A stretch of DNA of 64,000 nucleotides, from positions 11,914 through 75,913 of the forward strand of contig JARFUG010000005.1 in the NCBI GenBank assembly GCA_029289095.1. The letters are read 5' to 3'. The DNA is from Desulfuromonadales bacterium. Its GTDB lineage: Bacteria > Desulfobacterota > Desulfuromonadia > Desulfuromonadales > JACZKF01. This document shows positions 6,807 through 64,000 of this stretch, piece after piece. The stretch's first letter is position 1, and each line of letters starts with the position of its first letter. The notes under the pieces were generated by a model. The model worked only from the letters and a program-made list of their open reading frames with translations, made no database searches and was not told the DNA's origin. The position numbers and the translations under genes are program-made.

Positions 6807-6827
6807 ATGCTGCCCTCAGGAACCTCA

Positions 6828-26930: not shown

Positions 26931-26992
26931 TGCAACCCGTACGGCGCAGGCGAACGCCACTGACGACATTGAGCACGAGATATCGAGACCAA

Positions 26993-32236: not shown

Positions 32237-32334
32237 CTGGGGCCGGGTGGGTGGGAGGCTTCATTAAATGTAGGAAAACTTTACAATGAAGCCTTCTCGC
32301 CTAATTTCTGTTGTATTTTCAGATAGATACGATC

Positions 32335-32350
32335 TGGCCCGGAGTTTGCT
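32335..32350 (+). promoter_or_regulatory. sigma-54 (-24/-12) promoter candidate for the PEP-CTERM cargo gene
   Basis: TGGCCC-GGAGT-TTGCT with exact spacing, 47 nt upstream of ATG 32397. A perfect 10-bp inverted repeat AGGCTTCATT (32256-32265) / AATGAAGCCT (32285-32294) lies 41-79 nt upstream. Confidence 0.6.
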
Positions 32351-32396
32351 ATTCAATGAGAACAAACCCCAACCACCCCTTTCCAAAGGAGGGAAC

Positions 32397-33023
32397 ATGA
32401 AAAAATGGATAAGTATTTTGTCGATCGGAATTCTCCTGTGCTTTTCTTCATCAGCATTGGCGCTCACGTATTATTTCGACGTCTCCAACGAATTCGGCAC
32501 ATGGCAGGGGACAGTGCCGCCGGGCTACGGCTCTGTTGAGATCGAAAAGGGAGCCGATGGCTTCATCTATTTCACCGTGACCGCGAACGACAATTTCTTC
32601 ACCCCCAGCGGTCCAGGGCTCACCTGGGACAAGTTCTACTACAATTTCAACGACCAGAAGACCCTCGACACCAGCCTGATCGTCGTCACGGCTCCCGGCA
32701 ACTGGAACGTCGACATCACGAACAGGAACGTCTCGATGTTCGGCCGCTTCGACTATGGCACGCATGGCAGCGCCATCGGGAGCGAGTTTCTCAATCCTCT
32801 TACCTTCTACATCGCCGATCCGAGCCTGGTGGAAACCGATTTCGCATTCGCCAATGCCGACGGCTACCTCTTTGCCGCGCACCTGAGAAGATTCGCTTCG
32901 ATCGACGGCAGGGACAGCACCTTCCTTGCCGTGCGCACCGAACCGATCCCCGAGCCGGCGACAATTCTCCTTCTCGGCTCCGGTCTTCTCGGCCTTTACG
33001 GCGTCCGCAAACGCCGCAGTTGA
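32397..33023 (+). CDS. PEP-CTERM sorting-domain protein (exosortase cargo)
   Basis: ATG 32397 with an AAAGGAGGG RBS. Sec signal MKKWISILSIGILLCFSSSALA. C-terminus EPIPEPATILLLGSGLLGLYGVRKRRS has the PEP motif, a TM helix and a basic cluster, the canonical PEP-CTERM tripartite signal. Confidence 0.9.
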   Translation: MKKWISILSIGILLCFSSSALALTYYFDVSNEFGTWQGTVPPGYGSVEIEKGADGFIYFTVTANDNFFTPSGPGLTWDKFYYNFNDQKTLDTSLIVVTAPGNWNVDITNRNVSMFGRFDYGTHGSAIGSEFLNPLTFYIADPSLVETDFAFANADGYLFAAHLRRFASIDGRDSTFLAVRTEPIPEPATILLLGSGLLGLYGVRKRRS

Positions 33024-33326: not shown

Positions 33327-33406
33327 ACATCCCGTTACGAGTGAACGATGGCGGTCCTCCTTCGAAAGCGGGAATCCGGCCGACCATGCAAGGGAGAAGA
33401 ACCGCA

Positions 33407-36060: not shown

Positions 36061-36166
36061 CAGAATCCAGAATCCAGAAACCAGGAGCCAGAAAAGAACC
36101 CTGCACCCTGAATTTTGAACCTATGGGCAAGTCTTTCTCCTGGCTCCTGGATTCTGGCTCCTGGCT
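36061..36166. repeat. heptamer inverted pair (CAGAATC/CAGGAGC family and complement)
   Basis: CAGAATC x2, CAGAAAC, CAGGAGC, CAGAAAA at 36061-36095. The complement block TTCTCCTGGCTCCTGGATTCTGGCTCCTGGCT is at 36135-36166. CCAGGAGCCAG (36081-36091) pairs with CTGGCTCCTGG (36140-36150). Confidence 0.9.
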
Positions 36167-36186
36167 ACTGTTTTAGGAGATATTCA

Positions 36187-37215
36187 ATGCACATTCTGCG
36201 TGTCTACAACCGCGACCCGCTCTGGGACGCTTATGTCGATTCTCATCCCGAGGCGACCAATTATCACCGGCTTGGCTGGAAACGCGTGGTCGAAAGGAGT
36301 TTCGGGCACCAGGGGATCTACCTCGCGGCCCGCGACAATGAAGGGAAGATGCAGGGAATACTCCCCCTCGTCTATCTCAGGAGTCCTCTCTTCGGGAACG
36401 TCATCGTATCGGTTCCCTTTTTCAATTACGGCGGGCTTCTATGCAGTTGCACAGAGGCGGAGCACGCTCTGCTGTCCGAGGCCGAAAAGATCAAAGAGAA
36501 CCTGCGCGTCGGTCACCTCGAGCTTCGGCACATGGGTCGAAGCTCGCCGGGGCTCGTCACAAAGAACCACAAAGTGACGATGATCCTCGATCTGCTTCCG
36601 GACGAGGAGAGCCAGTGGCAGGGGTTCAGCGCAAAGGTTCGCAATCAGGTGAGAAAGGCGCAGAAGGCGGGGCTCGAGACAAAGCTCGGCGGCCTCAGTC
36701 TTCTCGACGGCTTCTACGACGTCTTCTGCAGGAACATGCGCGATCTCGGCACACCAGTGTACGCAAAGGCATTTTTCCGCAACATCCTGCGGGTCTTTCC
36801 CGAGCACACCCGGATTCTGTCGGTTTATCTCAACGGGAAGGTCATCGCTTCGGCTCTCCTCACCTGGTACCGCGACAGTCTCGAAGTCCCATGGGCTTCG
36901 TCGAACCGCGATTACCGCGATCTGTGTCCGAACAATCTGCTGTACTGGGAAGCGATCCGCTTCGCCGTCGGCATGGGGGTGAAGAGCTTTGATTTCGGCC
37001 GCTCCACGCCGGACCACGGGACGTTCCGGTTCAAGAAACAGTGGGGCGCCAGGCCGGTGCAGCTCTACTGGCAATACCTTCTCGGAAGTGAAAAAGAAGT
37101 CCCCGATCTGAGCCCGGCCAACCCCAAGTTCCGCCTGGCGATCAAGGTGTGGCAGAACCTCCCGGTAGGGGTGACAAAGCTTCTGGGACCGTCGATCGTG
37201 CGGAGTATTCCTTGA
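36187..37215 (+). CDS. FemAB-related protein, PEP-CTERM system-associated type
   Basis: ATG 36187 with a TAGGAGA RBS. MHILRVYNRDPLWDAYVDSHPEATNYHRLGWKRVVERSFGH..., FFNYGGLL, and FDFGRSTPDHGTFRFKKQWGA FemAB-fold C-terminus. Confidence 0.85.
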   Translation: MHILRVYNRDPLWDAYVDSHPEATNYHRLGWKRVVERSFGHQGIYLAARDNEGKMQGILPLVYLRSPLFGNVIVSVPFFNYGGLLCSCTEAEHALLSEAEKIKENLRVGHLELRHMGRSSPGLVTKNHKVTMILDLLPDEESQWQGFSAKVRNQVRKAQKAGLETKLGGLSLLDGFYDVFCRNMRDLGTPVYAKAFFRNILRVFPEHTRILSVYLNGKVIASALLTWYRDSLEVPWASSNRDYRDLCPNNLLYWEAIRFAVGMGVKSFDFGRSTPDHGTFRFKKQWGARPVQLYWQYLLGSEKEVPDLSPANPKFRLAIKVWQNLPVGVTKLLGPSIVRSIP

Positions 37216-37221
37216 GAGGCA

Positions 37222-37319
37222 GGAGTTGGGAGTTGGGAGTGAGGAGGCAGAAGGCGGAAGACAGAGGACAGAAGACAGAAGACAAGCCAGGAGCTATGAG
37301 CCAGGAACTATGAGCAATG
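37222..37319. repeat. heptamer array (GGAGTTG, GGAGTGA, GAAGACA, GAGGACA families) merging into a 14-mer AGCCAGGARCTATG duplication at the start codon
   Basis: Fourteen consecutive 7-nt units from 37222. AGCCAGGAGCTATG (37285-37298) and AGCCAGGAACTATG (37299-37312). The second ATG (37310) is the aminotransferase-like gene start. Confidence 0.9.
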
Positions 37320-38545
37320 AGCACAAAAGACGCTTCCGCATAGGACGCACTCTCCCGCCTGCGGCGGCTCCGATTGAGCTTCGCGACATCGTGTGCGGCC
37401 TTCGAGGGTGGTTTCGGGGGGAGAGGGCCGTGCGGGAGATGGAAGAGAGTTTCCGCTCGTTTTTCGGCGTGCGGCACTGCTTTGCCGTTTCCTCGGGCAC
37501 GGCGGCGCTCACCCTCATCCTCGCCGCGCTCAAGGAGAAGCGTCCGCGACGGACCGAGGTCCTCATTCCGGCCTACACTTGTTATTCGGTCCCCTCGGCC
37601 ATCGTGCGGGCCGGATTGAAGGTGGCCCTGTGCGACATCGATCCGAAGACTCTCGATTTCGACTACGGCGAGCTAAAGAGAAAACTCGAGAACCCGCGTC
37701 TGCTGGCCGTCGTGCCGACGCACCTGTTTGGCCTGCCGGCCGATGTGCCCCGACTTCGGGAGATGTTGCGCGACCGCGAAACGACCATCATCGAGGATGC
37801 GGCGCAGGCTATGGGGGGGCAGTTTGGAGGGAGAAAGCTCGGCACCCTGGGAGACGTCGGCTTCTTCAGCCTTGGTCGAGGAAAAGCGCTTTCCACCGTC
37901 GAAGGGGGGATCATTCTCACCAACTGTGACGAGATTGCCGCGAAAATCGCAAGAGAGCAGCGCCGCCTCTACGAGTATGGCGCTCTGGAGATGGGCTCTC
38001 TTGTGCTGTATGCCCTCGTGCTGACGGTTTTCCTGCGCCCCTCCCTCTTCTGGCTGCCGAGTTCCCTGCCTTTTCTGAACCTGGGGAAGACCGTCTTCGA
38101 TCCGACGTTCAGGATGCGAAGGATGAGCGGTTTTCAGGCAGGCCTGGCTCTGCACTGGCGGGAAAAGCTTGAAGCTCTGCAGGCTGCGCGCAGGGGGAGC
38201 GTCCGGCAGTGGTTCGGAGCCCTTATGCCGGCTCAGGCGGCACTCCTGAACGACCCGCCTCCTCTGCTTCGGCTGCCGGGGAGGGCGAAAACGGCGCACG
38301 GTGCATCGAGGCTGCTGTCGGGGGGGGCGAAAAAGGGGCTCGGAGTGTCGGCGGCCTATCCCGACGCCGTCAGCGCCATTCCAGAACTCGCCGGAGACTT
38401 CGCCGGTGAAGATTTTCCGGCAGCCAGGGACCTGGCTCGGCGGATCGTGACCCTGCCGGTCCATACCTACGTCAACAGTGAAGACCGCAGAAAAATTCTC
38501 GGTCTCTTGTCTCAAGTGGAGATGCAATGGCCGCTGTCAGCCTGA
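37310..38545 (+). CDS. DegT/DnrJ/EryC1/StrS-family PLP-dependent enzyme (sugar aminotransferase-like)
   Basis: FAVSSGTAALTLILAAL, VLIPAYTCYSV, IIEDAAQAMGG, FFSLGRGKALS (candidate PLP Lys), and C-terminal VTLPVHTYV. Confidence 0.75.
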   Translation: MSNEHKRRFRIGRTLPPAAAPIELRDIVCGLRGWFRGERAVREMEESFRSFFGVRHCFAVSSGTAALTLILAALKEKRPRRTEVLIPAYTCYSVPSAIVRAGLKVALCDIDPKTLDFDYGELKRKLENPRLLAVVPTHLFGLPADVPRLREMLRDRETTIIEDAAQAMGGQFGGRKLGTLGDVGFFSLGRGKALSTVEGGIILTNCDEIAAKIAREQRRLYEYGALEMGSLVLYALVLTVFLRPSLFWLPSSLPFLNLGKTVFDPTFRMRRMSGFQAGLALHWREKLEALQAARRGSVRQWFGALMPAQAALLNDPPPLLRLPGRAKTAHGASRLLSGGAKKGLGVSAAYPDAVSAIPELAGDFAGEDFPAARDLARRIVTLPVHTYVNSEDRRKILGLLSQVEMQWPLSA

Positions 38546-39369
38546 GCGATAAATGGAAAATAACCGTCCTGCTGGCGGGATGGGCGCTCCTGTTCTACCC
38601 CGTCGTTCCGCCGATGGTGGAGACGTGGCTCAATCACTCGGACAACTCCCACGCCCTACTGGTCCCCCTGATCTCCCTCTATTTCTTCTGGAAAAAGCGC
38701 GACACTCTGGGCGAGATCGGCATTTCAGGCTCCATGGCAGGGTGGATGATCCTGGCCGCGAGCCTTGCCGTTTATCTCGTGAGTTTCGCCGGCGGAATCG
38801 CTTTTTTCGCCCGGCTGATGATGATCACCTCCCTTGCGGGGCTGCTGTGGTGCTGCCTCGGTGCGCAGATGGTGCGGCATCTGGCGTTCCCGCTGGCCTT
38901 TCTGTGCTTCATGGTGCCGGTCCCCGATTCGATCCTCACGATGGTGTCCTTTCCGTTGCAACTGATGGCGAGCAAGATCTCCGCTGACCTGATCAGCCTC
39001 TGCGCGATCCCGGTGTACCGGGAGGGGAACATGCTCCATTTTCTGCAGACCCGTCTCGAGGTCGCCGAGGCCTGCAGCGGCATACGCTCCATCATGTCCC
39101 TGGCAATGCTGAGTGTCCTGTTCGCCTACGTGTCCGAGTCGGGCCGCTGGCAGAAGATCGTCCTCGTTCTCTCGGCTCTGCCCATTGCGCTGGCGGCCAA
39201 CATCGTGCGCGTCACCGGTACGGGGATACTGGCCCACTTCTATGGCGACCGGGCCGCGCAGGGCTTTCTCCACGATTTTTCCGGCATGGCCGTCTTCGCC
39301 CTGGGGATGGCGATGCTCTACTTCGAATACCAACTGCTCAACCGAATCGGCAAAAGGAACAGACGATGA
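38527..39369 (+). CDS. xrtA: exosortase (EpsH family; XrtA-like by locus context)
   Basis: 280 aa, about 8 TM segments. NSHALLVPLISLYFFW (YSHGxLVP-like). Catalytic Cys motif EVAEACSGIRSIMSL. Arg motif ALAANIVRVTGTGILA. His in FLHDFSGMAVF. The XrtA subtype is inferred from neighbouring marker genes and was not tested. Confidence 0.88.
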   Translation: MAAVSLSDKWKITVLLAGWALLFYPVVPPMVETWLNHSDNSHALLVPLISLYFFWKKRDTLGEIGISGSMAGWMILAASLAVYLVSFAGGIAFFARLMMITSLAGLLWCCLGAQMVRHLAFPLAFLCFMVPVPDSILTMVSFPLQLMASKISADLISLCAIPVYREGNMLHFLQTRLEVAEACSGIRSIMSLAMLSVLFAYVSESGRWQKIVLVLSALPIALAANIVRVTGTGILAHFYGDRAAQGFLHDFSGMAVFALGMAMLYFEYQLLNRIGKRNRR

Positions 39370-40058: not shown

Positions 40059-41228
40059 ATGAGAATTGCCGGAAAAGTGCAAAAGGCGGGGGCGCTGCTG
40101 TGGTCGGATCTCAAAGGCCTGGCGAAAAGAGAGATTGATTTTCACCGGGCGCGGCCACGAACCGCGATTTTGATTCTGACCTACCGATGTGATTCGAGAT
40201 GCAAAACCTGCTCCATGTGGCGCAGGGATGCCGGCGGCGAAATGGAGAAGGAACTCGAGCTGTCTCAATGGAAAGCGATCGTAGACAAACTGAGCAATGA
40301 AGGAATCCGGGTCTTCGAACTCTTCGGCGGGAACATCCTGCTGAGGAAAGAACTAGTGATGGAGCTTACGAGATATCTGTTCGGCAAGGGTGCGATCATT
40401 CACATCCCCACCAATCAACTGGGACTCGACGACGAAATCGCAGAGGCGATGGTGAATTACGTCGACACCGTCTATCTCTCCACGGACGGGACGGGAAACA
40501 CGCAGGACGCGATCAGGGGTATCGACGGTTCGGAGCGTATCGGCAGAGACGCCGTCGACAGGCTGCTTATGAAGCGCAGGGCTGCCCGAAGGCAGAGAGG
40601 GCGACTGAGAATCGTATGCAACTGCACCGTGTCGAAATATAACTTCGATCGCCTCGAAAGAATCGTCGAATACGCCGAGAGCAAATGTTTCGACGAAGTG
40701 CATTTTGAATACGCGGGGGAATTTCGGAGACCCACCGTCGAGAACTCCAGAATACTCGATATCACCCCGGAGCCTCACTACCTGAATGAGGGCGAATCGA
40801 TTCTGGTCAACCGGGAACAGGCTGTCGTCATCAAGGAAACCCTGCGAAAGATACGTCGAAAATACGCAAGCGGCCCTTTAAAGATCACGACGCTGAATAT
40901 CGATTCCATGTCGCTCGCAAACCTGTATAAGGGGAGCATACCCCACAAAAAATGCTATCTGGAGCGTTGTGAAGTCACCGTGGACCCTTACGGGAACATG
41001 GTTGCCTGTCCCTTCATCACCAACTTCATACTGGGAAATTGTCTCGAGGGAGAATTCACCAAAGTATGGAACGGCCCAAGACACAAGGTGTTCAGAAAGG
41101 CCCAGAACTCCGGTCGTCTCCCCATGTGCAGGAACTGCATTCTCGGAGTCCAGTGGAATCACGGAATCGCCAAGTCCCTGCATCGGATCTATCTCACCCG
41201 ATTCAGACCCGCCATTACAGGGACGTAG
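40059..41228 (+). CDS. radical SAM enzyme with C-terminal SPASM/twitch-like Cys-rich domain
   Basis: ILTYRCDSRCKTCSMW (CX3CX2C). The C-terminal segment CYLERCEVTVDPYGNMVACP...GNC...MCRNC includes CX12C with GX4C, plus CX2C. AAGGAA RBS. Confidence 0.85.
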   Translation: MRIAGKVQKAGALLWSDLKGLAKREIDFHRARPRTAILILTYRCDSRCKTCSMWRRDAGGEMEKELELSQWKAIVDKLSNEGIRVFELFGGNILLRKELVMELTRYLFGKGAIIHIPTNQLGLDDEIAEAMVNYVDTVYLSTDGTGNTQDAIRGIDGSERIGRDAVDRLLMKRRAARRQRGRLRIVCNCTVSKYNFDRLERIVEYAESKCFDEVHFEYAGEFRRPTVENSRILDITPEPHYLNEGESILVNREQAVVIKETLRKIRRKYASGPLKITTLNIDSMSLANLYKGSIPHKKCYLERCEVTVDPYGNMVACPFITNFILGNCLEGEFTKVWNGPRHKVFRKAQNSGRLPMCRNCILGVQWNHGIAKSLHRIYLTRFRPAITGT

Positions 41229-42361: not shown

Positions 42362-42388
42362 TTGACTCGTTGTGAATCGAGGTCGACG

Positions 42389-43600
42389 ATGAATCAAGCA
42401 GAAGTCCAGATCCTTAACGTTCCAGACGTGCAGATTGTCGAGAGCGACCGGAAACTCATGACGATCAGGGTGGTTGTCGGATTGGATGGGATGGACGAAA
42501 TCAGAAACGAATGGATGAACCTGACGAAGCTGCAGGGCAATCGCGGGATTCATCAGGCCTTTGGATGGGTCCGGGCCGCCTACGAGACGCTTTCGAGAGG
42601 CGATAAGCCGTATATCGTCGTTCTGAGGACCGACCGTGGGAAAATCGTTGCCATAGCTCCATTGGCGCTTGGATACGGAAAATACAGGGGAATCACGATC
42701 CGGAAGCTGGGGTTCGTCAGGAACGACCAGAGCCCGTGCAACGACTTCATTCTCCATCCCGGGTTCGAAAAAGATGCGATGTTCGTTCTGCTGGAGCACC
42801 TGAACACATTCATGGATTGGGAGATGGTCGACCTGCACCAGGTGGACATCGACGGCCACACGGGGAAGGCCATCAAGAGCCTCATGGAAAGATTCCCTTA
42901 CTGCTCGTACGAGAAAAAGAACAGACAGAGCCCCTATCTCGTCTTCGAGAAAGGCTGGAACGAATTCTGGGGTGGAAAATCGAGGAGACTCAAAAAGTCG
43001 ATCAACAACAAGCTGAACCGGCTGGGGATGGACTACCAGGTCGAGAAGCGAAGGATTTCCGACGCCACGGCGCAGGAATTGGCAGAAATCGTCCGGATTT
43101 CGCAAAAGAGCTGGAAGCGGCGCATCGGCGCAGAACTCGCGGTCTGCAGCGACAACTGGAAATTCTACACGGAGATCTGCAACCATTTCGGCCCCGAGGG
43201 GTGTATCCATGTCTGGATCCTGAGAATCGAAGGGATTCCCGTCGCCTTCGAGTTCCATGTCGAGTACGGAGGAGTCCAGTATCCGATAAAAGCCGACTAT
43301 GACGACGACTTCAAAAAGCTCTCTCCCGGCTCCATTCTCGAATACGAAATCATCAGGAGATCTTTTAACGATCCAGGGTTGTCAGCCTACCATTCATGCG
43401 CACATAGCTATGATTATCTTCTCAAATGGACCCAAACAATCAGGGATCATCGGAACTATGAATTTTTTGCGCCAAAGATCAAGACGATAATATTGTATAA
43501 ATTCGAATACGAATTGATGAAGCTTGTGCGAAAAAGTCGATTGTACAGGTGGTACAAGGAAAGACAGTGCAGGGAGGGATTGCAAGGGGAAGCGCTATGA
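42389..43600 (+). CDS. FemAB-fold GNAT acyltransferase (CelD/BioF2-like)
   Basis: ATG 42389 (GAGG RBS), or TTG 42362. ISQKSWKRRIG and IKADYDDDFKKLSPGSILEYEII motifs. The 3' third is visibly AT-richer than the rest of the locus. Confidence 0.7.
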   Translation: MNQAEVQILNVPDVQIVESDRKLMTIRVVVGLDGMDEIRNEWMNLTKLQGNRGIHQAFGWVRAAYETLSRGDKPYIVVLRTDRGKIVAIAPLALGYGKYRGITIRKLGFVRNDQSPCNDFILHPGFEKDAMFVLLEHLNTFMDWEMVDLHQVDIDGHTGKAIKSLMERFPYCSYEKKNRQSPYLVFEKGWNEFWGGKSRRLKKSINNKLNRLGMDYQVEKRRISDATAQELAEIVRISQKSWKRRIGAELAVCSDNWKFYTEICNHFGPEGCIHVWILRIEGIPVAFEFHVEYGGVQYPIKADYDDDFKKLSPGSILEYEIIRRSFNDPGLSAYHSCAHSYDYLLKWTQTIRDHRNYEFFAPKIKTIILYKFEYELMKLVRKSRLYRWYKERQCREGLQGEAL

Positions 43601-44316: not shown

Positions 44317-45354
44317 ATGTATCTTATCGTCAGTATCGATGTTGAGGAGGATAATTGGGGCGAGTACGACCCCCTCGACTATTCCGTCGAAAACCTCAGG
44401 AAGGTGCCGGGTCTTCAGGATATTTTCGATCGCTTCGAGATCACGCCGACCTATCTCGTCAACTATCCCGTGGCGAGCGATCCCTGGGCCGTCGAGATGT
44501 TTTCCCGTTACGCCGAACTCGGCAGGTGCGAGATCGGGATGCACTGCCATCCCTGGAACACCCCGCCGTTCTCCGACACAGCACATCAAGGCGACAGCAT
44601 GCTGTGCAACCTGCCTGCCGGGGTGCAGTTCGAGAAGCTAAACTTCCTGCACGAGACGATCCGGAAGAACATCGGCGTCGCTCCGGTCTCCTTCCGGGCG
44701 GGTCGCTGGGGGTTCGGTCCTGAAACTGCCGCAGTCCTCGATCGTCTCGGATACAAGGTAGACACTTCGGTTACCCCTTTCGTGAGCTGGAAAGGATTGG
44801 GAGGTCCCGACTATACCGATTTCGGACTGGCGCCTTTCCGTTTCCGCTGCGACGACATCGCGCAGGCAAACGAAAAGGGTCCCCTCCTGCAGGTGCCTGC
44901 GACGGTCGGCTTTCTTCAGTCCAGCTACTCTCTTTGCCGTCTGATGAAAAAGATGGCCGAGAACCGTATCGGAAGGATGATTCACCTCAAGGGAATCCTG
45001 TATCGCTGCGGATTTTTGAACCAGGCCTGGCTCTCTCCGGAGCTCTCGGATGTGCGAACCATGATCAGGCTGGCCCAGAGGATCGAAAAGCTGAATTACC
45101 CCTGCCTGAACATGACCTTCCATTCAAGCAGCCTGAAAGAGGGGCTCAGCCCCTTCGTCGGGATCGGCGAAGAAGCTCGTTTCCTCGAGAAGATAAAGGC
45201 GTTCCTGTCGTTTGCACGGCAGTCCGGATATGCCTCGGTGAGCCTGAAGGAGTTTGCGCAGCGCTATTCATGTGCAATCGAGATCGATCGGTCCGGCGCT
45301 GCGCGGAGCGGGGCCGGAGGACGCAATGCTCACCCGCAGGCCGCGAATGAATGA
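44317..45354 (+). CDS. polysaccharide deacetylase-like protein (WalW-type, divergent CE4)
   Basis: MYLIVSIDVEEDNWGEYD parallels the TVDVEDYF start of the 9603 deacetylase. CEIGMHCHPWNTPPF and VSFRAGRWGFG motifs. Confidence 0.55.
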   Translation: MYLIVSIDVEEDNWGEYDPLDYSVENLRKVPGLQDIFDRFEITPTYLVNYPVASDPWAVEMFSRYAELGRCEIGMHCHPWNTPPFSDTAHQGDSMLCNLPAGVQFEKLNFLHETIRKNIGVAPVSFRAGRWGFGPETAAVLDRLGYKVDTSVTPFVSWKGLGGPDYTDFGLAPFRFRCDDIAQANEKGPLLQVPATVGFLQSSYSLCRLMKKMAENRIGRMIHLKGILYRCGFLNQAWLSPELSDVRTMIRLAQRIEKLNYPCLNMTFHSSSLKEGLSPFVGIGEEARFLEKIKAFLSFARQSGYASVSLKEFAQRYSCAIEIDRSGAARSGAGGRNAHPQAANE

Positions 45355-45429: not shown

Positions 45430-46575
45430 TTGAGCAGGTCAGTGAAACTGGAAGTCCTTGCCGAATGCTGTGATCACGAGTCGCTGATCCATCAGTGGGA
45501 TGAGATCCTGGCGCAGAGCGTTTCGGCCCGGCTCTTCGAAAGCCCTCTATGGGTGCTGAACTACTGGAGGTATCGCTGCGGAGCAAAGAATGCGCTCAGC
45601 TTCATCACCGGGAGAGACGAAGATGGCAGAATGGTCGCAATCCTCCCCTTCGTCAAGAAGCCGCAGCCCGGGGCGCCGTTCCTTTCCACCTGGGAATGCG
45701 CGCATTCCACCGGTGAGTATGAATCGAACTGGACCTGTCATCCCGATTATGCCGGACGATTCGCATCGGCCCTCCTGGATCACCTGAACAGTCACCGGCA
45801 TCTCTGGTACCAGATGAAGATGACGGTCGTGCGGGAAGACTCCTCGGCGCTGACGGCTCTGCTGCCCGCATGCAGACAAAGCGGCTTCTCGATCATCTCG
45901 GCACCCGGCCGGGAGGTGCCTTTTATTCCCATCACCGATTCAGCATCCCTCGAGGACGTGGTCGACGGCAAGTACAGGCGGGAAATGAGGAGACGTCAGA
46001 ACAAGCTGGAGAAGGTGAACCCCTTGAAATTCGAGCTTTACTGTGATCAGGAGGGGCTCGATCCGGCCCTTGACGAATTCTTCGCGGTGGAGGCTTCCGG
46101 GTGGAAGGGGCGTGGAGGGAGCGCCATTCGCGACGACGACTCGGCGGAGCGGTTCTGGAGACAACTTTCGCATGATGCGGCCCGCCGCAGGCAATTGAGG
46201 CTGCATCTTCTGCGTTCGGGAGATGGGGTCATCGCAGGGCAGCTCGGGATCGTCTTCGCAAAGACCTACTATTGTCTGAAGATCGGCTATGACGACAGAT
46301 ACGGGGAATTCGGCCCGGGAGCCCTGACGACCCGCGAGGCGGTCCGGCACTGCCTCGAAGATCCGCAGATCGATGTCTATGACTTTGCAGGCGCGGCGCT
46401 GCCTTACATGAGGAATTGGACGGACCGGACCTACAGGACTTGGAGCATTCAGATCGGCTCTACCCATGCGGCGCTGGGGGGCGTTTTCGATCTTGTCCGA
46501 CACGGCCGGGGGACGCTGCGCTCCCTTCGGCGGGCGATCACAGGGAGGAATGACAATGTCTCCGAAAACACCTGA
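45430..46575 (+). CDS. FemAB-fold GNAT acyltransferase (CelD/BioF2-like)
   Basis: FFAVEASGWKGRGGSAI and LKIGYDDRYGEFGPGALTT motifs. Start uncertain (TTG 45430 or GTG 45442). Confidence 0.7.
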   Translation: MSRSVKLEVLAECCDHESLIHQWDEILAQSVSARLFESPLWVLNYWRYRCGAKNALSFITGRDEDGRMVAILPFVKKPQPGAPFLSTWECAHSTGEYESNWTCHPDYAGRFASALLDHLNSHRHLWYQMKMTVVREDSSALTALLPACRQSGFSIISAPGREVPFIPITDSASLEDVVDGKYRREMRRRQNKLEKVNPLKFELYCDQEGLDPALDEFFAVEASGWKGRGGSAIRDDDSAERFWRQLSHDAARRRQLRLHLLRSGDGVIAGQLGIVFAKTYYCLKIGYDDRYGEFGPGALTTREAVRHCLEDPQIDVYDFAGAALPYMRNWTDRTYRTWSIQIGSTHAALGGVFDLVRHGRGTLRSLRRAITGRNDNVSENT

Positions 46576-46619: not shown

Positions 46620-47912
46620 GTGGGCGGCTTGCATGATTTCCAGGACAAACGCAGGGCTGCTGTTGAACCGGGACCCGCCGGGCGCTATGAATGGAAGGCC
46701 TCCGATGTGCCGGGCATCCGTCCGGGGATGCTCCTTCCGCGGATCGGGGTTCGAGGATCGGTCTTCCCCTTCAGCGCCAGGGGAATCGGCTATTACTACT
46801 ATGCGCGAAACGGAATTTTCGCCCTGTGCAGACACTGGCGTCTGGAAGGGCGCGAGGTCCTGTTTCCGTCTTATTTTCACGGTGTCGAACTCGAGGCGCT
46901 CCTGGCTGCCGGAGTTCGTCCGAAATTCTATCCGGTCAACGCTGAGATGCAGATCGATATCGACGCACTGACGGCGCGGATCACTCCTGAAACGCAGGCC
47001 GTCTACATGATTCACTATCTCGGGTTTCCAGGTCCCGTCGAGGCTCTTCGCGAGATCTGCCGTGAGCGCAAGCTCAAGCTGATCGAGGATTGCGCTCTTG
47101 CTCTGCTGTCGAAAAAGGGGAGCCGACCTCTGGGGTCGTTCGGTGACGCGGCCGTATTCTGCCTGTACAAGTCGCTCCCTCTGCCGACGGGAGGCGCCCT
47201 GGTGCTCGGCAGCAAAGAGAGCGCTTCCTTTGCGACCAGGCGCGCGCCGTGGCGGGCAGCATGGAGCAATCTGGGTTCCTCACTGGTGCAGCACTTCGAG
47301 CGCCGCGGAAACCGGCTGGCCCAGAGCGCTCTGAACGGGACCCGCCTCGTGATGAAGACGGCGGCTCGTCTAACGGGTACGGAATGGGTCGGGGTGGGGG
47401 GGCAGCATTTCGAAATCGATAGAGCGCATCTCGGAATGAACAGCCTCAACCACGTTCTCGTGGCCGGGCAGAATTACAGACAGATCGTCAAGACGCGTCG
47501 ACGCAACTACCTCTTTCTCCTGCGCCATCTCTCGCCTTTGTCCCGACCGGTATTTGCCGATCTGCCCAAAGGGGTGTGCCCTCTTTTCTACCCGTTGAGG
47601 GCGCCCTTTGAAAAACAGGAATTCATCGATCGCCTGCATGCCCGCAGGGTCATGGCCGTCAACTTCTGGCTGCAGGGGCATCCGTCCGTAACGCCGGAGG
47701 CGTTTCCCGAATCGGATCGGCTGCGTCGCACGATTCTTGAGATCCCCTGTCATCAGGATCTGGACGAATCCGACATGCTCAGGATTACTGATATTGTCAA
47801 GGAGGAATGGGGGCGGATGCTCCAGAACTGCTGCATGCGCGGCAGCGGTCCCGGCGTGCCGGTGCACGATGAGCCGCTTCTGCACATGACAGACAAGACG
47901 CAGGGGCGCTGA
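46620..47912 (+). CDS. DegT/DnrJ-like PLP-dependent enzyme (divergent)
   Basis: VLFPSYFHGVE, LIEDCALALLS, AVFCLYKSLPLPTGG (candidate Lys), and TILEIPCHQDLDESDM C-terminus. Start uncertain (GTG 46620 or ATG 46728). Confidence 0.6.
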   Translation: MGGLHDFQDKRRAAVEPGPAGRYEWKASDVPGIRPGMLLPRIGVRGSVFPFSARGIGYYYYARNGIFALCRHWRLEGREVLFPSYFHGVELEALLAAGVRPKFYPVNAEMQIDIDALTARITPETQAVYMIHYLGFPGPVEALREICRERKLKLIEDCALALLSKKGSRPLGSFGDAAVFCLYKSLPLPTGGALVLGSKESASFATRRAPWRAAWSNLGSSLVQHFERRGNRLAQSALNGTRLVMKTAARLTGTEWVGVGGQHFEIDRAHLGMNSLNHVLVAGQNYRQIVKTRRRNYLFLLRHLSPLSRPVFADLPKGVCPLFYPLRAPFEKQEFIDRLHARRVMAVNFWLQGHPSVTPEAFPESDRLRRTILEIPCHQDLDESDMLRITDIVKEEWGRMLQNCCMRGSGPGVPVHDEPLLHMTDKTQGR

Positions 47913-49000
47913 TGTCCGATCTGTCGATCACCGTTATTGAATCTCTCGACGAGTGGAACAATCTGGCTCAGGAGTGGCGAACGCTCCTTTCGGACTCCAG
48001 GTCGGAATCCTTTTTTCTGCGGTGGGAGTGGCTCTCGGCCTGGGTCGATTGCTGCCTCGGTGACGACCGACAGCTCTTCGTGCTGGCTTTCCGTGAAAAG
48101 GAGGCCCTTGTGGGGATCGCTCCCCTCTATATCAGCCTGAAGAAATACGGCCCCTTTCCCATACGGGAAGTGCGTCTGCTCGGTTCTCCCGACGGCGGCT
48201 CCGACTATCTCGACGTCATCTCCAGGCGTGGGAGGGAAAGGGTTGTCGCCGATGCGCTTTACGACTATCTGATGGGGGAGGGCGCGAAAAGATGGGACAT
48301 CCTTTACCTGCAGGATATCCCCGCCGATGCCCTCTTCATTCTGTACTTTATGAAAAGGATTCAGGCCGAAGGCAAGTACGCCGAACTGGTGCAGGGTTCC
48401 TACTGCCCGATCGTCGAACTTCCCGAATGTGAGAACACCCTGCTCAAAGAGCTGTCGCAGTGGAGAAGAAAGAAGTTCAAGCAGGACATCCGGGTGCTCC
48501 ATCGCGAGCAAAATGTTGTCCACTCGGTTCTCGTGGGAGATGACGTCGCCGCCGGCCTCGAAACTTTCTTCCGGCTCTATGAGGAAAAAGGAGGGTGGCC
48601 CGCGGAGGGACTCAGAAGTCTCATCCGAAGCTTTCTCGCAAGATGTGGTGACGACAAGCCGCTTCAGCTCGATCTGCTCTCGGTCGACAACCGGGCTGTG
48701 GCAGGGCTTCTCCATCTGAAGCACAACGATACGATAGCGATGTACCTGATGGCGGTCGACAAGGAGTTCAATCCCAAGATAAGTCTGGGCAACCTGCTGG
48801 TAGGGCTGTGCCTGAAAAACTCCATCGCAGCAGGACACGCCTTCTACGATTTTCTGAAAGGGGACGAGAGCTACAAGTTCCATTGGGCGACGGGAGGAAA
48901 GAGCAGCATGAATCTGCTCTTCTGGCAGAAGCGTCCGGCCGCGACGATAGTCGCTCTCAACAGGCTCCTGCGGCACGCAGGGAAGCTTATCCTGAGATGA
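47912..49000 (+). CDS. FemAB-fold GNAT acyltransferase (CelD/BioF2-like)
   Basis: TGATG overlap at 47910-47914. C-terminal FYDFLKGDESYKFHW signature, compare FLRGDEQYKFKWG in 18625-19794. Confidence 0.7.
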   Translation: MSDLSITVIESLDEWNNLAQEWRTLLSDSRSESFFLRWEWLSAWVDCCLGDDRQLFVLAFREKEALVGIAPLYISLKKYGPFPIREVRLLGSPDGGSDYLDVISRRGRERVVADALYDYLMGEGAKRWDILYLQDIPADALFILYFMKRIQAEGKYAELVQGSYCPIVELPECENTLLKELSQWRRKKFKQDIRVLHREQNVVHSVLVGDDVAAGLETFFRLYEEKGGWPAEGLRSLIRSFLARCGDDKPLQLDLLSVDNRAVAGLLHLKHNDTIAMYLMAVDKEFNPKISLGNLLVGLCLKNSIAAGHAFYDFLKGDESYKFHWATGGKSSMNLLFWQKRPAATIVALNRLLRHAGKLILR

Positions 49001-49037
49001 GCGCGGGACGTGAACGATTCGACTGGAAGGACCCGTG

Positions 49038-50285
49038 ATGGTCATCCATGTGCTGATCGATGTATACCCGCATCCCTTCAAACCGTACTTCGATGTGCAG
49101 TTCGAAGAATGGGAAAAAGCGGGCCATCAGGTTACGGTTTTTTCAACCTCCTGCATACCGGGTATTGCGAGCCCTGTGGAGGTCAGGCCAGTCAGAACTC
49201 TGAGGGATCACCCCCTCAGGAGGATCGGACAGGTTCTCGAAGCCTTCATCAGGTCGCCTTCCCGGACCTTTTCAGTCATGAAGAGCGGGGCAGGGCTCAG
49301 GGAAAAAATCAAGCTCCTCGTGACGGACAGTCAGCTCGACAGGGAGATGCCGGACCTTTTCTTCGTGCACAACCTTGCAGCTTGCCTGAGATTTGCTTAT
49401 CTGAAGCATGTACTCCCGGGTATCCCACTGGCCCTATATTTCCACGGAGGGGAGATTCCAGGGGTCCCCTCCATACCTGTGGCCCGATCACGACCGGCGC
49501 TGGAGGCTCCCGACATCATTTTCACGAATACCCGCTACTCGAAATCCGATGCCGTAAGGCGCGGCGCACACCCCGGGAAAATCCGATGCATACCCGTCGG
49601 ATTCAGGGTTCAAGACTATGCACTCCCTGCGTCCAGGTCCTATCTCGAAGGCGGGAAGGTTTCGTTGGCGAGTGTCGGGCGGTTTTCAGTGGAGAAAGGT
49701 TTCGACATCGCGCTGCGGGCGCTGTCGGAGTTCAAAAAGAAGAACCCATGGGACTTCAGGTACACGATGATCGGCAACGGTCCCGAGATGGAGAATCTGA
49801 AAAAACTTGTCGAAACGCTCGATCTCGCAGAGCACGTGGAGTTCACTGGATACCTCGATGCCGCCGAAGTTGCGCGACACCTGTCCCGGACCGACGTTCT
49901 GATTTTGCCCAGCGTTCCGGCAGGAAACTGCGAGGAGAACCAGGCGTGCGTGATGCAGGAAGCGATGCTGATGGGGGCCGTGGTCATCGCCTCGGACCTC
50001 GGCGGCGTCGCCGAGTCGATTCCCGATGCCATGAAGCCGTATCTTTTCAGGCCGGGGGACGTAGATCAACTCTGCCGGAAGATGGCCGAGCTTTTGTCTT
50101 GCGGTGCAGAAACGATCGGAAAACTTGGGACCGTCGGGCGGGAGTTCGTCCTGTCGAATTATGATTCCCGTATCGTCAATGCGAAACTGCTCGCAGAGGC
50201 GAAAGAGATCGGGCAAGGGGCTTCGTTCGATGGGGCGTCTCCAGAGGAGGGGGATCAACAGATCGGGAATCATCACGCCTTTTGA
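49038..50285 (+). CDS. family 4 (GT-B) glycosyltransferase
   Basis: ATG 49038 with a GGAAGGA RBS. LILPSVPAGNCEENQACVMQEAMLMGAVVIASDLGG (E-x7-E). Confidence 0.8.
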   Translation: MVIHVLIDVYPHPFKPYFDVQFEEWEKAGHQVTVFSTSCIPGIASPVEVRPVRTLRDHPLRRIGQVLEAFIRSPSRTFSVMKSGAGLREKIKLLVTDSQLDREMPDLFFVHNLAACLRFAYLKHVLPGIPLALYFHGGEIPGVPSIPVARSRPALEAPDIIFTNTRYSKSDAVRRGAHPGKIRCIPVGFRVQDYALPASRSYLEGGKVSLASVGRFSVEKGFDIALRALSEFKKKNPWDFRYTMIGNGPEMENLKKLVETLDLAEHVEFTGYLDAAEVARHLSRTDVLILPSVPAGNCEENQACVMQEAMLMGAVVIASDLGGVAESIPDAMKPYLFRPGDVDQLCRKMAELLSCGAETIGKLGTVGREFVLSNYDSRIVNAKLLAEAKEIGQGASFDGASPEEGDQQIGNHHAF

Positions 50286-60987: not shown

Positions 60988-62496
60988 TCAGTTGACAATC
61001 TTCAGCCCGCTGGGTGCCCTGGGTGCCGAAATGATCGGCTCGCTCGGAGCAGGTTCGCTCGGAGCCGTGCTGAAATTGACCTGATGGCCGTGAGTCCCCA
61101 AGTAGGAACTGAAAGCCGCCGTCAGATTGCCGGAAGCGTCGACGACATTTCCGGTGAGCGAACCAGTCACATTGTTTCTGTAACTGACGCAGGAACGGTT
61201 CAGTCCGTTCGTGGAGTGAATGAGCACGTTGTCGTAGAAGTTGAAGGGACCTTTCCCGCAGGGGTCGGAACGGAAGTCGTGGATCGCTCCGACCGCCGTA
61301 TTGCGGTAATAGTTCAGCCTTCCCTGGCTGCCGTGGGGATTCCAGCGGTGGACGGCGCCCCCGGAGCCGCTCTGCCTGAAGTAGTTGAAGGAGACATCGA
61401 CGTGATGAGTGTCGACGAAGCTGCTGTTCAGATACCAGGCAAGGGGGGTCCCCGAGCTCATAATGACGTGGTTGCCTCGGATGAAGAGATAGTCGGTGTA
61501 GTATTTCGGGGCGATGCCGTTGTTGATGCCGGTCGAGCCTCCGCCGAGGGTGGTGTGGATGTAGTTGTTCTCGATGAGGACCCGCTTGGTGTTGTAAAGG
61601 CTTCCGATGGCCGACCCCCCGCGCCAGTGGCTGAATTCGTTGTCCTGAATGACAAGGTAGAACCCCGCACCGGCGTTCTCAGTGAAGATGAAGCCCTGGT
61701 TGTGGTTGACCGAGGTGCTGGTGTCGAGGTCTCTGAAGGAGCAGCGGCGGATCGTCATGTAGTTCCGGTTGCTGCGCACGTACAGACCCCAGTCCCTGAA
61801 ATTGCGCAGGTGCAGACTGTCGAAGTAGATGCCCGCTCCGGCGCCGATGTGGCGACCCTGAGCATCCATGGTGACACGCTCTCCGGGGAAGCCGATCCAG
61901 GTGAAGGGACGCCCCTCGATTCGAACCTGGGTTGCGGAATGCGCGGGCAGGACATAGTTCCCACCCCTGAAGTAAACGATATTGGTCGTATTGCTTGCGG
62001 CAGAGCTGGAAAAGAAGCTTCCCACGGACCTGAACGGCTGGGTGATGCTCCCGGTCTCGGCGCCGGTGTGCTTGGAATCGACGAAAACAAATCCGTTCGT
62101 CGTCACGTTGATGGCCCACGAGGTGGTCGCCGTCCTGTTCTCGGCGTCGGTGACGGTAAGGGTGATCGTCCCTGAACTCGCCTGGGGATTGGGCCAACGG
62201 ATCTCACCGGTGGAGGCGTTGATGGTCATTCCCGGGGGAGCGTTGGTGAGTCTGAAGGTGAAGGGATAGAGTCCTCCGGTCACCGCCGCACGGATGTTGT
62301 ATTCGATTCCCGGATAGGCCCGGAAGATGCGGTTGCTGGCAGGGATAGCCGGATTCCCGGTCCCCGCGGGTCGGATGTTGATGATCTCCAGCGGATAGTT
62401 GGCGGAATACGCCGGCGTCGAAAAAAGCATGAGCACCAGCATGACCGGCACGATTCCGAGAATGTAAAAAGGTTTGAACAGATTCCTTGCGGACAT
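60988..62496 (-). CDS. secreted protein with an Ig/cadherin-like N-terminal domain and a right-handed beta-helix (pectate-lyase-fold) domain
   Basis: Start at ATG 62496 (GAGAGG RBS). Signal/anchor FYILGIVPVMLVLMLFSTPAYSA. YPFTFRLTNAPPGMTINASTGEIRWPNP (putative Ig domain). Beta-helix rungs (IENNYIH, IRGNHV, YRNTAV, YDNVLI). Confidence 0.7.
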   Translation of the reverse strand: MSARNLFKPFYILGIVPVMLVLMLFSTPAYSANYPLEIINIRPAGTGNPAIPASNRIFRAYPGIEYNIRAAVTGGLYPFTFRLTNAPPGMTINASTGEIRWPNPQASSGTITLTVTDAENRTATTSWAINVTTNGFVFVDSKHTGAETGSITQPFRSVGSFFSSSAASNTTNIVYFRGGNYVLPAHSATQVRIEGRPFTWIGFPGERVTMDAQGRHIGAGAGIYFDSLHLRNFRDWGLYVRSNRNYMTIRRCSFRDLDTSTSVNHNQGFIFTENAGAGFYLVIQDNEFSHWRGGSAIGSLYNTKRVLIENNYIHTTLGGGSTGINNGIAPKYYTDYLFIRGNHVIMSSGTPLAWYLNSSFVDTHHVDVSFNYFRQSGSGGAVHRWNPHGSQGRLNYYRNTAVGAIHDFRSDPCGKGPFNFYDNVLIHSTNGLNRSCVSYRNNVTGSLTGNVVDASGNLTAAFSSYLGTHGHQVNFSTAPSEPAPSEPIISAPRAPSGLKIVN

Positions 62497-62618
62497 GGTT
62501 TCCTCTCTATTTCGAACGGGAGCTCTCATTGTAGTGTTCCTGCAGGAGACTGCCGCGTTCAGCTTAATGATACAGAACTTTCGAGCAAATTGGTCAACGC
62601 TAATTTGATTTGATGGAC

Positions 62619-63026
62619 TTATTTGACCCGCTTGACCTTAGGCGGTTTCAACTGGCCGGGGGGGGTCGGCCGATCGTCTCCCGGGTTCGTATTGCCGGGC
62701 CCGGCAACGGTGCAAACTTCGCCCGAAAGGGGGCTGTCGAGCCCTGAAGTGTTGTAGGCCGAGACGGCGAAACACCAGGTCCTGTTTTCGTCAAGCCCCA
62801 TGATCTGGATCGAGGTGAGATTGCCCACCGTGACGGGAGAGGGCCCCTGGATGGCTCCGGCGCCGTTGAAGGAGGAGCTGTCCGCAGGCCTGTAGTGGAC
62901 CTTGTAGCCGGCGAGATCGCTTTCCGAGTTGGGATCCCATGCCAGGGAGATGTCTTTGGCGAGGGCGGGGGCGCTTGCCATAAGAAGGCAGGCGACAGTC
63001 ATTGCAAAAATTCTTGAGCGTTTCAT
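62619..63026 (-). CDS. small secreted fibronectin type III-like protein
   Basis: ATG 63026 (GGAAGGA RBS). Signal MKRSRIFAMTVACLLMASAPALA. KDISLAWDPNSESDLAGYKVHYR...WCFAVSAYNTSGLDS is the FN3 pattern. Paralogous to the N-terminal domain of 63088-63933. Confidence 0.65.
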   Translation of the reverse strand: MKRSRIFAMTVACLLMASAPALAKDISLAWDPNSESDLAGYKVHYRPADSSSFNGAGAIQGPSPVTVGNLTSIQIMGLDENRTWCFAVSAYNTSGLDSPLSGEVCTVAGPGNTNPGDDRPTPPGQLKPPKVKRVK

Positions 63027-63087
63027 ATTCTGATTCCTTCCATATTCATTTAGGTGCCGGCGTTCGAAGCGCAAGGAGCGATCGGCC

Positions 63088-63933
63088 TCAGAATGCCTCG
63101 GTGGTGAAGCTGTAGACAGGGCTCCCCAGTTCGACGCCGTCGGCGTGAACGGCCACAACCTGCCAGTAATACGTGGTGGAGGGTTCCAGGTTGTGGACCG
63201 TATGGGAGGTCTGGACGATATCGCTCAAAACCTCGACTTTGCTGGTATCCCACTCGAATTCGCTGCCGATCTGACCGAGGTCGATTCCGGTGTAGTCGCT
63301 GCCGTCGCCGCAGCCGCTTGCCAGGAAGATGAACGATGCAAGCAGCAGCGGAGCGATGAATTTCATCCGCCGGCGTGATTTCATGCCGAAGCCGGCCAGG
63401 GCGAGAACGGACATTCCGGCGAGCAGGGCGCCTCCCTGGTGAGCCTGGGCGACGGAGGTCTTTTCGAGTGCGGAGGCATCGGTGGTGTAGGCGAGCTTGT
63501 AGTAAATGACTTCGTCGACGGCGGGAGGCGTTTCCCAGCCGAAGGCGACTTCCCTCGGTGAGTGGAGGCTCTGGTCGGCAGGGAAGGTGACGTTCGGCGT
63601 CCAGTGGCTGGCGATGATGTTGGAGAACTCGCTCTCAACGCCCCAGGCGTCGTAAGCGGTGACGGCGAAGTAGTAGACCTGCCCATTGAGTCCGGTGATC
63701 GTCGACTCGAGGGAGAGGCCGATGTCGATGGGAGAGCGCCCCTGGTCGGCGCCGGCGCCGTCAAACGGCCCGTCGGGGTTGGCGGCTCGGTAGTAAACGC
63801 GGTAGCCGGCAATGTTCGGATCGTCGTCGGCCTCGAGCTGCAGGCGGATGTCCTTTGCCCATGCGCCGGCGCAGAGGGTCAGGATCAGCAGGGGCAGTGC
63901 AATCAGATGAAAGAACAGGCGGTTTTTTTTCAC
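63088..63933 (-). CDS. FN3-like secreted protein ORF with an internal anchor-like segment plus a lipoprotein signal (possible two-gene fusion)
   Basis: GTG 63933 (AAAGGAG RBS). Signal MKKNRLFFHLIALPLLILTLCAGAWA. FN3 block KDIRLQLEADDDPNIAGYRVYYR...YYFAVTAYDAWGVES. Internal GGALLAGMSVLALAGFGMKSRRR is followed directly by MKFIAPLLLASFIFLASGC and a second FN3-like block (EPSTTYYWQVVAV). Confidence 0.6.
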   Translation of the reverse strand: MKKNRLFFHLIALPLLILTLCAGAWAKDIRLQLEADDDPNIAGYRVYYRAANPDGPFDGAGADQGRSPIDIGLSLESTITGLNGQVYYFAVTAYDAWGVESEFSNIIASHWTPNVTFPADQSLHSPREVAFGWETPPAVDEVIYYKLAYTTDASALEKTSVAQAHQGGALLAGMSVLALAGFGMKSRRRMKFIAPLLLASFIFLASGCGDGSDYTGIDLGQIGSEFEWDTSKVEVLSDIVQTSHTVHNLEPSTTYYWQVVAVHADGVELGSPVYSFTTEAF

Positions 63934-64000
63934 GGTGAAACTCCTTTTCCATTTAGGTGATGTCCCTCCAGGAGCGAAGGTTCATTGCAGATCGACAGCA

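Follow-up and report, generated by a model that had tools for sequence, protein, structure and literature searches.

Bacterial lipoprotein signals have been treated as strictly N-terminal, and both annotation and predictors look for them only there. The classical signals, which are matured by Lgt, LspA and Lnt and follow the pattern [LVI][ASTVI][GAS]C, combine a basic n-region, an h-region of 14–22 residues, an invariant Cys and small residues after it. The PEP-CTERM sorting signals of exosortase (XrtA) systems have a Pro-Glu-Pro motif directly ahead of a Gly-rich hydrophobic helix, behind which an Arg/Lys cluster forms the extreme C-terminus. A further tail type has already been named by the NCBI curators in NCBIfam release 20.0 (NF058595, "invert_tail", lipo-invert putative C-terminal anchoring domain); the model is apparently unpublished, and our literature search found no paper using "lipo-invert" or NF058595, none on an internal lipobox, and no published experiments. 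Here we analyzed a stretch of 64,000 nucleotides from a Desulfuromonadales bacterium (the window; assembly GCA_029289095.1, contig JARFUG010000005.1, positions 11,914 to 75,913). An open reading frame (ORF) at 63088..63933 on its minus strand, with a GTG start, encodes a protein of 281 amino acids (aa) plus stop that belongs to a family related to NF058595 below its threshold. Its C-terminal tail is a split FN3 domain that houses a helical hairpin with a lipoprotein-type signal. The tail type itself is thus already curated, and what is new here is the lipobox-bearing hairpin inside an FN3 domain as a probable C-terminal anchoring module.

The protein consists, in order, of a Sec signal, an FN3 domain, a hydrophobic helix, the basic loop KSRRRMK, a second helix with the lipobox ASG-C208, a Gly-rich linker and an FN3-like end (Table 1). 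Hydropathy analysis gave three hydrophobic stretches (residues 4–29, 166–184 and 189–210), and the N-terminal one, with its small-x-small end, is kept in all homologues. FN3 domain 1 has a weak Pfam fn3 match (residues 31–106), and the alignment shows G43, Y44, Y47, V91, T92, A93 and Y94 to be invariant in it. A sequence-only reading of this DNA had described the same layout, with no stop codon between the first helix and the lipobox, and translation of the ORF, hydropathy and Pfam confirmed it; the peptides it quoted, QGGALLAGMSVLALAGFGMKSRRR (residues 166–189) and MKFIAPLLLASFIFLASGC (residues 190–208), are exact, and the DNA junction ATGAAATCACGCCGGCGGATGAAATTCATC is found on the minus strand with its two ATGs at 63384 and 63366. 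The "another FN3-like domain" that it placed past the lipobox is indeed FN3-like, but it is merely the second half of a domain whose first half precedes helix 1. For the same reason its "unusual two-domain membrane protein" holds in outline as a membrane protein, but the protein has one FN3 domain with an inserted membrane hairpin rather than two joined domains.

Sequence comparison indicates that the hairpin divides a single FN3 domain into two halves, its flanks, with a helix-loop-helix insertion of about 70–85 residues between them; a contiguous domain would span about 85–95 residues. Without splicing, Pfam matched the C-terminal piece to the ends of two profiles (fn3, residues 231–271 at profile positions 39–78 of 84; Pur_ac_phosph_N, profile positions 56–93 of 93); this half alone scored 25.2 and 29.5 bits, respectively, and only over the second half of each profile. 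No Pfam match was obtained with the N-terminal half by itself, and the segment before helix 1 (VAFGWETPP...VIYYKLAYTTD) resembles strands A–C. We then removed the insert in silico and repeated the Pfam search. Each profile now gave one match over the junction, with 42.1 bits for Pur_ac_phosph_N (PF16656, profile positions 10–93 of 93, cut-off 30) and 37.2 bits for fn3 (PF00041, profile positions 13–79 of 84, cut-off 25). The N-terminal half, once spliced, added about 12 bits and profile positions 10–59, and full-profile matches appeared only after this removal. The outcome was the same for three distant relatives (P0007, P0009 and P0018).

Comparison of the module profile with 63 uninterrupted domains of the TTYYWKVVA type, taken from the profile-search proteins and from loci L060 and L085, led to the same division of the domain. 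In the local mode of hhalign, query positions 12–186 matched template columns 3–94 of 95 in a single alignment (91 columns aligned; probability 99.7%; E 2.5e-26), with the entire hairpin as one insertion after template column 48. AlphaFold2 models were obtained for the window protein (input alignment of 17 sequences) and for a Nitrospirota-type relative, P0030 (20 sequences). The model of the window protein contains strands at residues 115–150 and 234–278, with predicted local distance difference test (pLDDT) values by block of 84–93 and 81–95, respectively, while helices 168–181 and 190–206 have low pLDDT and the linker is disordered. The P0030 model is built similarly, with strands at 117–169 (block pLDDT 84–97) and 242–279 (87–98), helices at 181–201 and 208–224, and low pLDDT for helices and linker; in the window family strand C' is predicted to follow the insert, and in P0030 to precede it, a difference of one strand in the position of the loop. 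High pLDDT in two separated half-sheets is expected if the halves pack into one sandwich. The best Foldseek matches in the PDB were two-FN3 fragments (LAR, neogenin and DCC) over about 265–270 columns, and the insulin/IGF1 receptors were also among them. When 1.84 billion representatives were searched exhaustively with a profile of the module alignment, 28,849 matches were returned, the best 150 of which were all giant multi-FN3 proteins; this search gave no family count and shows only how common this FN3 subtype is in its uninterrupted form. We consider it very probable that the protein comprises a signal peptide, FN3 domain 1 and an FN3 domain 2 with the hairpin inserted between strands C and E.

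Judged by its sequence, the insert combines a predicted stop-transfer helix with a lipoprotein-type signal behind it. In the window protein, KSRRRMK, FIAPLLLASFIFL and A-S-G-C208 provide the n-region, the h-region and the lipobox, respectively. Analysis of 58 distinct (non-identical) modules revealed that the Cys is invariant (58/58), that Leu occupies position −3 in 42, with a hydrophobic residue there in nearly all, that most have Thr, Ala, Ser, Val or Ile at position −2, and that position −6 is Gly in 31. The distance from the last Lys/Arg to the Cys is 14–22 residues (median 17), and the net charge of the 12-residue loop ranges from +1 to +6 (median +4). Behind the Cys, position +2 is Gly in 51 modules and Asp in none, and positions +3 to +6 are mostly Gly. 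A hydrophobic segment occupies the place of helix 1 in every module. This order of helix, loop, helix and Cys, at the same place in the domain in all 58 modules found by homology, is by sequence comparison far beyond chance. An even number of membrane passes, together with the positive loop, would leave both FN3 halves on the same side of the membrane, which we take as support for the predicted topology. A Nitrospirota subfamily (L018, L022, L037, L058; P0018, P0027–P0040) additionally has a Cys pair, C.D....T.GC, in the first FN3 half and a conserved [IV]YYAG[IV]G motif immediately before helix 1; both are absent from the window's family.

The module is placed at the C-terminus of otherwise unrelated surface proteins. 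A genome scan with one genome per species found it in 32 loci, in proteins with total lengths of 221 to 1685 aa: 14 in Desulfuromonadia (Desulfuromusa, Geopsychrobacter, Geobacteraceae and others), 13 in Nitrospirota, and others that include metagenome-assembled genomes of Dongiaceae (924 aa) and Bacteroidetes (1510 aa). The N-terminal parts ahead of the module vary from about 150 to 1600 aa, and the Cys lies at residues 167–1629 in the relatives and at residue 208 in the window protein, where 73 residues follow it. In every case the protein ends with the module, 52–120 residues past the Cys (median 68.5). A profile search added Nitrospirota proteins of 280–645 aa in which N-terminal "choice-of-anchor D" domains are followed by the same tail. 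Proteins of the "choice-of-anchor" class are surface proteins bearing one of several alternative C-terminal anchors (bioRxiv 10.1101/2023.03.06.531300). The module sits at just that position in the Nitrospirota proteins, which supports an anchoring role, and the conserved tail probably anchors the C-terminal end of the protein to the membrane. The matches of NF058595 to the hairpin region, although all of them stay below the cut-off, likewise speak for an anchor. Some Nitrospirota loci (L037, L050, L078 and L028) contain two or three FN3-family genes in tandem, the module having been checked in the scan-matched gene only; these may be sets of surface proteins sharing this anchor.

The junction between helix 1 and the second signal superficially resembles the end of an anchored protein followed by the start of a lipoprotein, and the sequence-only reading had accordingly raised the fusion of two adjacent genes by loss of a stop codon. 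A recent fusion of this kind, or an assembly error, is hardly credible. The identical protein is present on 2 contigs from two independent public assemblies, and a homology search found 12 full-length relatives (268–328 aa, down to about 31% identity), all single polypeptides in which an N-terminal signal and FN3 are followed by two hydrophobic segments with a basic cluster between them, and then by L-x-[SAG]-C, a Gly run and an FN3-like end. With four more homologues the single ORF is kept across several phyla, in 17 full-length homologues (down to 27–31% identity) and in the 32 species-level loci, and no split two-gene version was seen among 80 genome loci. The fusion explanation also fails because the flanks are two halves of one FN3 domain, which would not be expected from two independent genes.

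The same reading had offered an internal translation start, at ATG 63384 just ahead of the KSRRRMK loop or at ATG 63366 inside it, which would yield a separate small lipoprotein besides the full-length protein. Two in-frame ATGs do stand ahead of a good n-region, h-region and lipobox. However, Met is found there in 3/17 aligned full-length homologues, the internal Met-Lys/Met-Arg being limited to the three closest relatives; no Shine-Dalgarno-like motif precedes any in-frame ATG, GTG or TTG of the loop region in 30 loci with DNA (0/30), and five of these loci have no candidate in-frame start codon in that region. In the window GGCGG abuts the ATG with zero spacing, and a protein started there would comprise only half of an FN3 domain, which could not fold by itself. 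We regard internal initiation as very improbable. The duplicated ATGAAAT that had been pointed out at the junction is present; as a functional repeat we reject it, and it is probably incidental because it follows the non-conserved Met-Lys. The alignment with homologues that the sequence-only reading proposed as a check thus showed orthologues that uniformly encode a single polypeptide at the genomic level, the outcome that it had itself named as refuting its suggestion.

Taking the observed layout, its conservation, the split domain, the C-terminal placement and the link to an exosortase locus together, we propose the following course of events. The N-terminal Sec signal would export FN3 domain 1 and strands A–C of FN3 domain 2. 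Helix 1 (residues 167–184) would then stop transfer, with the KSRRRMK loop staying in the cytoplasm according to the positive-inside rule, and helix 2 (residues 192–207) would act as an internal lipoprotein-type signal that sends the last 73 residues back out across the inner membrane, so that the lipobox ASG-C208 comes to lie at its outer face. Both FN3 halves, now on the same side, would fold into one sandwich in which strand B pairs with E, and C pairs with C' and F. Lgt would add diacylglycerol to Cys208, and LspA would probably cut between G207 and C208, giving an N-terminal chain with the helical hairpin and a C-terminal chain with an N-terminal lipid on a flexible tether, the two being held by the shared FN3 fold. 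The sheets of an FN3 domain are formed by strands A-B-E and C'-C-F-G. Each sheet would need strands from both halves, and hence the chains would stay interlocked after cleavage. On balance we lean towards this whole chain, namely an envelope protein of an XrtA/PEP-CTERM exopolysaccharide locus that has a C-terminal split-FN3 hairpin anchor, is lipidated by Lgt and is probably cut by LspA. A more far-reaching proposal, which we put forward tentatively, is that the internal signal forms an Lgt/LspA maturation system in which two anchored chains rebuild the FN3 domain, the lipidated strand-donor being a detachable C-terminal lipid anchor that possibly passes to Lol.

Several points weigh against this reading. 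The match of NF058595 to the window protein (residues 151–212 at profile positions 10–75 of 113) reaches 20.8 bits (E 3.8e-4) and is below the cut-off of 37. The model also matches 12/14 family members, 8/10 Nitrospirota proteins and 9/10 other genome proteins, with scores of 19–36.8 bits in the relatives (best 36.8, L050), and 0/34 tested proteins reach the cut-off; the layout implied by its name (C-terminal tail, membrane segment, lipoprotein-type signal) is present here, a comparison by name only. The lipobox of the window protein itself, L-A-S-G-C, has Ala at −3 and Leu at −4, and the hydrophobicity of the Gly-rich helix 1 is only moderate (about 1.95 on the Kyte-Doolittle scale). All 58 modules have Ser, Ala or Gly at position −1, a statistic that is partly circular because the collection filter required [GAS]-C; the invariance of the Cys and the Leu bias at −3 are unaffected by the filter, and homologues outside it (P0005, L024, L027 and L030) still carry the Cys. 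The AlphaFold2 input alignments are shallow, and the packing of the halves into one sandwich is suggested by pLDDT, strand content, hhalign and the Foldseek ranking, not by contacts. The topology, the lipidation, the cleavage and the places where the products end up are predictions, the first three made from sequence rules. If LspA cuts and the +2 rule known from E. coli applies, Gly at +2 would direct the lipidated chain through Lol to the outer membrane, with its partner chain staying in the inner membrane, a conflict within the proposed model.

This conflict in sorting would not arise if the hairpin remained uncleaved and anchored the FN3 domain to the inner membrane, with the Cys either lipidated without an LspA cut or unused by Lgt; in the latter case the Cys and its small neighbours would serve helix packing or another modification. 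The same evidence for the architecture applies, the hairpin alone would be enough as an anchor, and Gly-rich helices suit tight packing (Gly at −6 in over half of the modules; GxxxG-like spacing in helix 1). However, an uncleaved hairpin leaves unexplained the invariant Cys, Ser/Ala/Gly at −1, Leu at −3, the length of the h-region and the Gly run, which together describe an Lgt/LspA substrate, and a plain hairpin would tolerate far more variation there across phyla. We consider this explanation unlikely.

The sequence-only reading had likened helix 1 and the basic cluster to sortase/exosortase-type C-terminal anchors without a PEP motif. The resemblance is fair, as the two elements together look like the tail of the window's own PEP-CTERM protein (GGALLAGMSVLALAGFGMKSRRR versus PEPATILLLGSGLLGLYGVRKRRS) and the gene lies within an XrtA locus, but membership in that class fails. 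No homologue has PEP before helix 1, where the window protein has AQAHQGG; 92 residues follow the basic cluster, so that the segment is not C-terminal, and the PEP-CTERM and GlyGly-CTERM models gave no match at E up to 1. GlyGly-CTERM/rhombosortase was likewise considered and rejected, as the GG of the window protein (Q-G-G-A) is not conserved and its segment is neither C-terminal nor matched by the model. The resemblance bears on a double processing in which LspA and a second enzyme (exosortase-, rhomboid-type or site-2 protease), cutting before or within helix 1, would excise the hairpin. The cargo would then be held through a two-chain FN3 domain to the lipidated strand-donor and be taken by Lol to the outer membrane, a true C-terminal lipid anchoring. 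XrtA in the window, EpsH/EpsI near some homologues, and semi-conserved motifs before helix 1 (YYAG[IV]G in Nitrospirota, LLAG in Desulfuromonadia) are in its favor; the Nitrospirota [IV]YYAG[IV]G motif might be what such a second enzyme recognizes. Gly without Asp at +2 suits Lol export, and the name of the NCBIfam model implies anchoring of the whole protein. Nevertheless, the missing PEP motif and model matches count against it, the pre-helix motif is not common to both subfamilies, no conserved protease gene adjoins, and the scheme is entirely inferential. Such double processing appears quite unlikely to us, and the anchor with Lgt lipidation and a probable single LspA cut remains our preferred reading.

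Over positions 1–60000 the window is a near-complete, canonical XrtA/PEP-CTERM exopolysaccharide locus (Table 1), which also encodes many glycosyltransferases, FemAB-like ligases and aminotransferases. The split-FN3 gene heads a minus-strand run of three genes and is placed at the edge of the glycosyltransferase block.

Table 1. Coordinates of the split-FN3 gene, its predicted elements and other features of the window
Feature	Position	Strand	Basis
Shine-Dalgarno AAGGAG, 7 nt upstream of the GTG start	63941..63946	-	Read from sequence
Whole split-FN3 ORF	63088..63933	-	100% identity to database protein P0001
N-terminal Sec-type signal peptide, residues 1–26 (MKKNR / hydrophobic core / AWA, then KD)	63856..63933	-	Hydropathy; cleavage site inferred
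Complete FN3 domain 1, residues about 27–110	63604..63855	-	AlphaFold strands 27–94, pLDDT 84–93
First half of FN3 domain 2 (strands A–C), residues about 111–160	63454..63603	-	Spliced Pfam, hhalign columns 1–48, AlphaFold
Helix 1 of hairpin, GGALLAGMSVLALAGFGM, residues 167–184; predicted stop-transfer, outside to inside	63382..63435	-	Hydropathy 1.5–2.0; predicted topology
Basic loop KSRRRMK, residues 185–191; predicted cytoplasmic, doubling as n-region of the internal signal peptide	63361..63381	-	Sequence
Helix 2, putative h-region of the internal lipoprotein-type signal, FIAPLLLASFIFLASG, residues 192–207, ending in lipobox L-A-S-G	63313..63360	-	Hydropathy up to 2.3
Cys208 (TGC), predicted diacylglyceryl acceptor and LspA site G207/C208	63310..63312	-	Conservation; lipidation and cleavage predicted
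Flexible post-Cys linker, residues 209–231, Gly-rich in homologues	63241..63309	-	pLDDT below 50 at residues 203–223
Second half of FN3 domain 2 (strands C'/E–G), residues 232–281, motifs TTYYWQVVA and SFTTEAF	63091..63240	-	Pfam, AlphaFold, hhalign columns 50–95
Next gene: secreted 135-aa protein of FN3 type, paralogous to FN3 domain 1	62619..63026	-	Pfam fn3 32.4 bits; gene call on the identical contig; clusters with family
Third gene: 513 aa, signal anchor and He_PIG immunoglobulin-like (Ig) domain	60988..62529	-	Pfam He_PIG 37.4 bits; gene call on the identical contig; rest beta-helix by eye, no match there
TIGR03013 priming transferase	2013–3371	+	Above curated cut-off
TIGR03007 chain-length determinant	4237–5796	+	Above curated cut-off
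TIGR03015 ATPase	6807–7997	+	Above curated cut-off
TIGR03016 outer-membrane protein	8019–9254	+	Above curated cut-off
PEP-CTERM protein, tail ...IPEPATILLLGSGLLGLYGVRKRRS	32274–33023	+	Sole window ORF from scan for classical PEP-CTERM tail
PrsT	33341–36055	+	Above curated cut-off
Exosortase A (XrtA)	38527–39369	+	223.1 bits, cut-off 208

Clustering of the neighborhoods of 35 loci found a PrsR-like gene adjoining the homologue in 13 and a PrsK-like kinase in 9, while EpsH/EpsI lie within 10 kb in three loci. The conserved neighbors were these PrsR/PrsK-like, Crp-like and OmpR-like regulators and housekeeping glycolysis genes, and no conserved dedicated protease was found beside the family in this clustering. 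In Desulfuromonadia (L007, L012, L019–L023 and L042), the order gap-pgk-tpi, an OmpR-type regulator, a small Cys-rich protein, a Crp/Fnr-type regulator and the split-FN3 gene is syntenic, and the last gene is convergent with the PrsR/PrsK-like sigma-54 regulator and kinase (the other gene names being assigned by eye). The window's copy is placed outside such a setting. Both FN3 genes of the window are preceded by a leader, CACCTAAATG[G/A]A...GGA, at 63049–63058 and 63951–63960, just upstream of the ribosome-binding sites; this leader may have been left by a tandem duplication or be a small regulatory element common to both genes. As a sigma-54 promoter the leader was rejected, as GG-N10-GC spacing is not matched by eye.

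Around the exosortase gene, four FemAB-like Acetyltransf_6 genes (36115–37215, 42362–43600, 45430–46575 and 47912–49000) are interleaved with two DegT-type aminotransferases (37226–38545 and 46620–47912) and accompanied by a radical SAM/SPASM gene (40059–41228), all on the plus strand. This set suggests amino-acid decoration of an amino-sugar polymer. Five long candidate plus-strand ORFs inside the locus (23883–26930, of 1015 aa; 26930–27697; 30316–32169; 44317–45354; 49010–50164) had no Pfam match at E up to 1e-5.

If the proposed mechanism is correct, it would represent a new way of C-terminal anchoring in diderm bacteria, through a conserved internal lipobox within a folded extracellular domain, and would come as a surprise to those who study protein sorting and the biogenesis of lipoproteins. 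It would widen the substrate range of Lgt and of LspA, the target of globomycin and myxovirescin, provide a natural bacterial two-chain FN3 domain formed by strand complementation, and bring a further component to the exosortase/PEP-CTERM matrix systems, which are poorly understood. The lipidated chain could also carry or bridge cargo towards the outer membrane.

Unlike a classical lipoprotein signal, the present one is internal (Cys208 of 281), lies behind exported domains and a stop-transfer helix, and has a predicted cytoplasmic loop as its n-region. Work from Inouye's laboratory in the 1980s reportedly showed that an internalised lipoprotein signal is still processable. Internal signals that export a C-terminal domain after Sec-inserted helices occur in actinobacterial Rieske proteins and Sco2149; these are Tat signals, and they differ from the present case in involving no cleavage, no lipid and no split domain. 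In the insulin/IGF1 receptors, the insert lies inside FnIII-2, and both chains contribute strands. Furin cuts this insert, and the alpha and beta chains remain one receptor (PMC7039211). The receptors thus resemble the module in having an FN3 domain interrupted by a long insert with a protease site, but they are eukaryotic, their insert is a soluble, disordered segment and not a membrane hairpin, it is cut by furin instead of signal peptidase II, no lipid is attached, and the chains are also disulfide-linked. If the predicted processing holds, the split-FN3 module would form a new class of sorting signal alongside PEP-CTERM, LPXTG, GlyGly-CTERM and the C-terminal domain of the type IX secretion system, used by exosortase-locus and "choice-of-anchor" proteins of Desulfuromonadia, Nitrospirota and other diderm bacteria.

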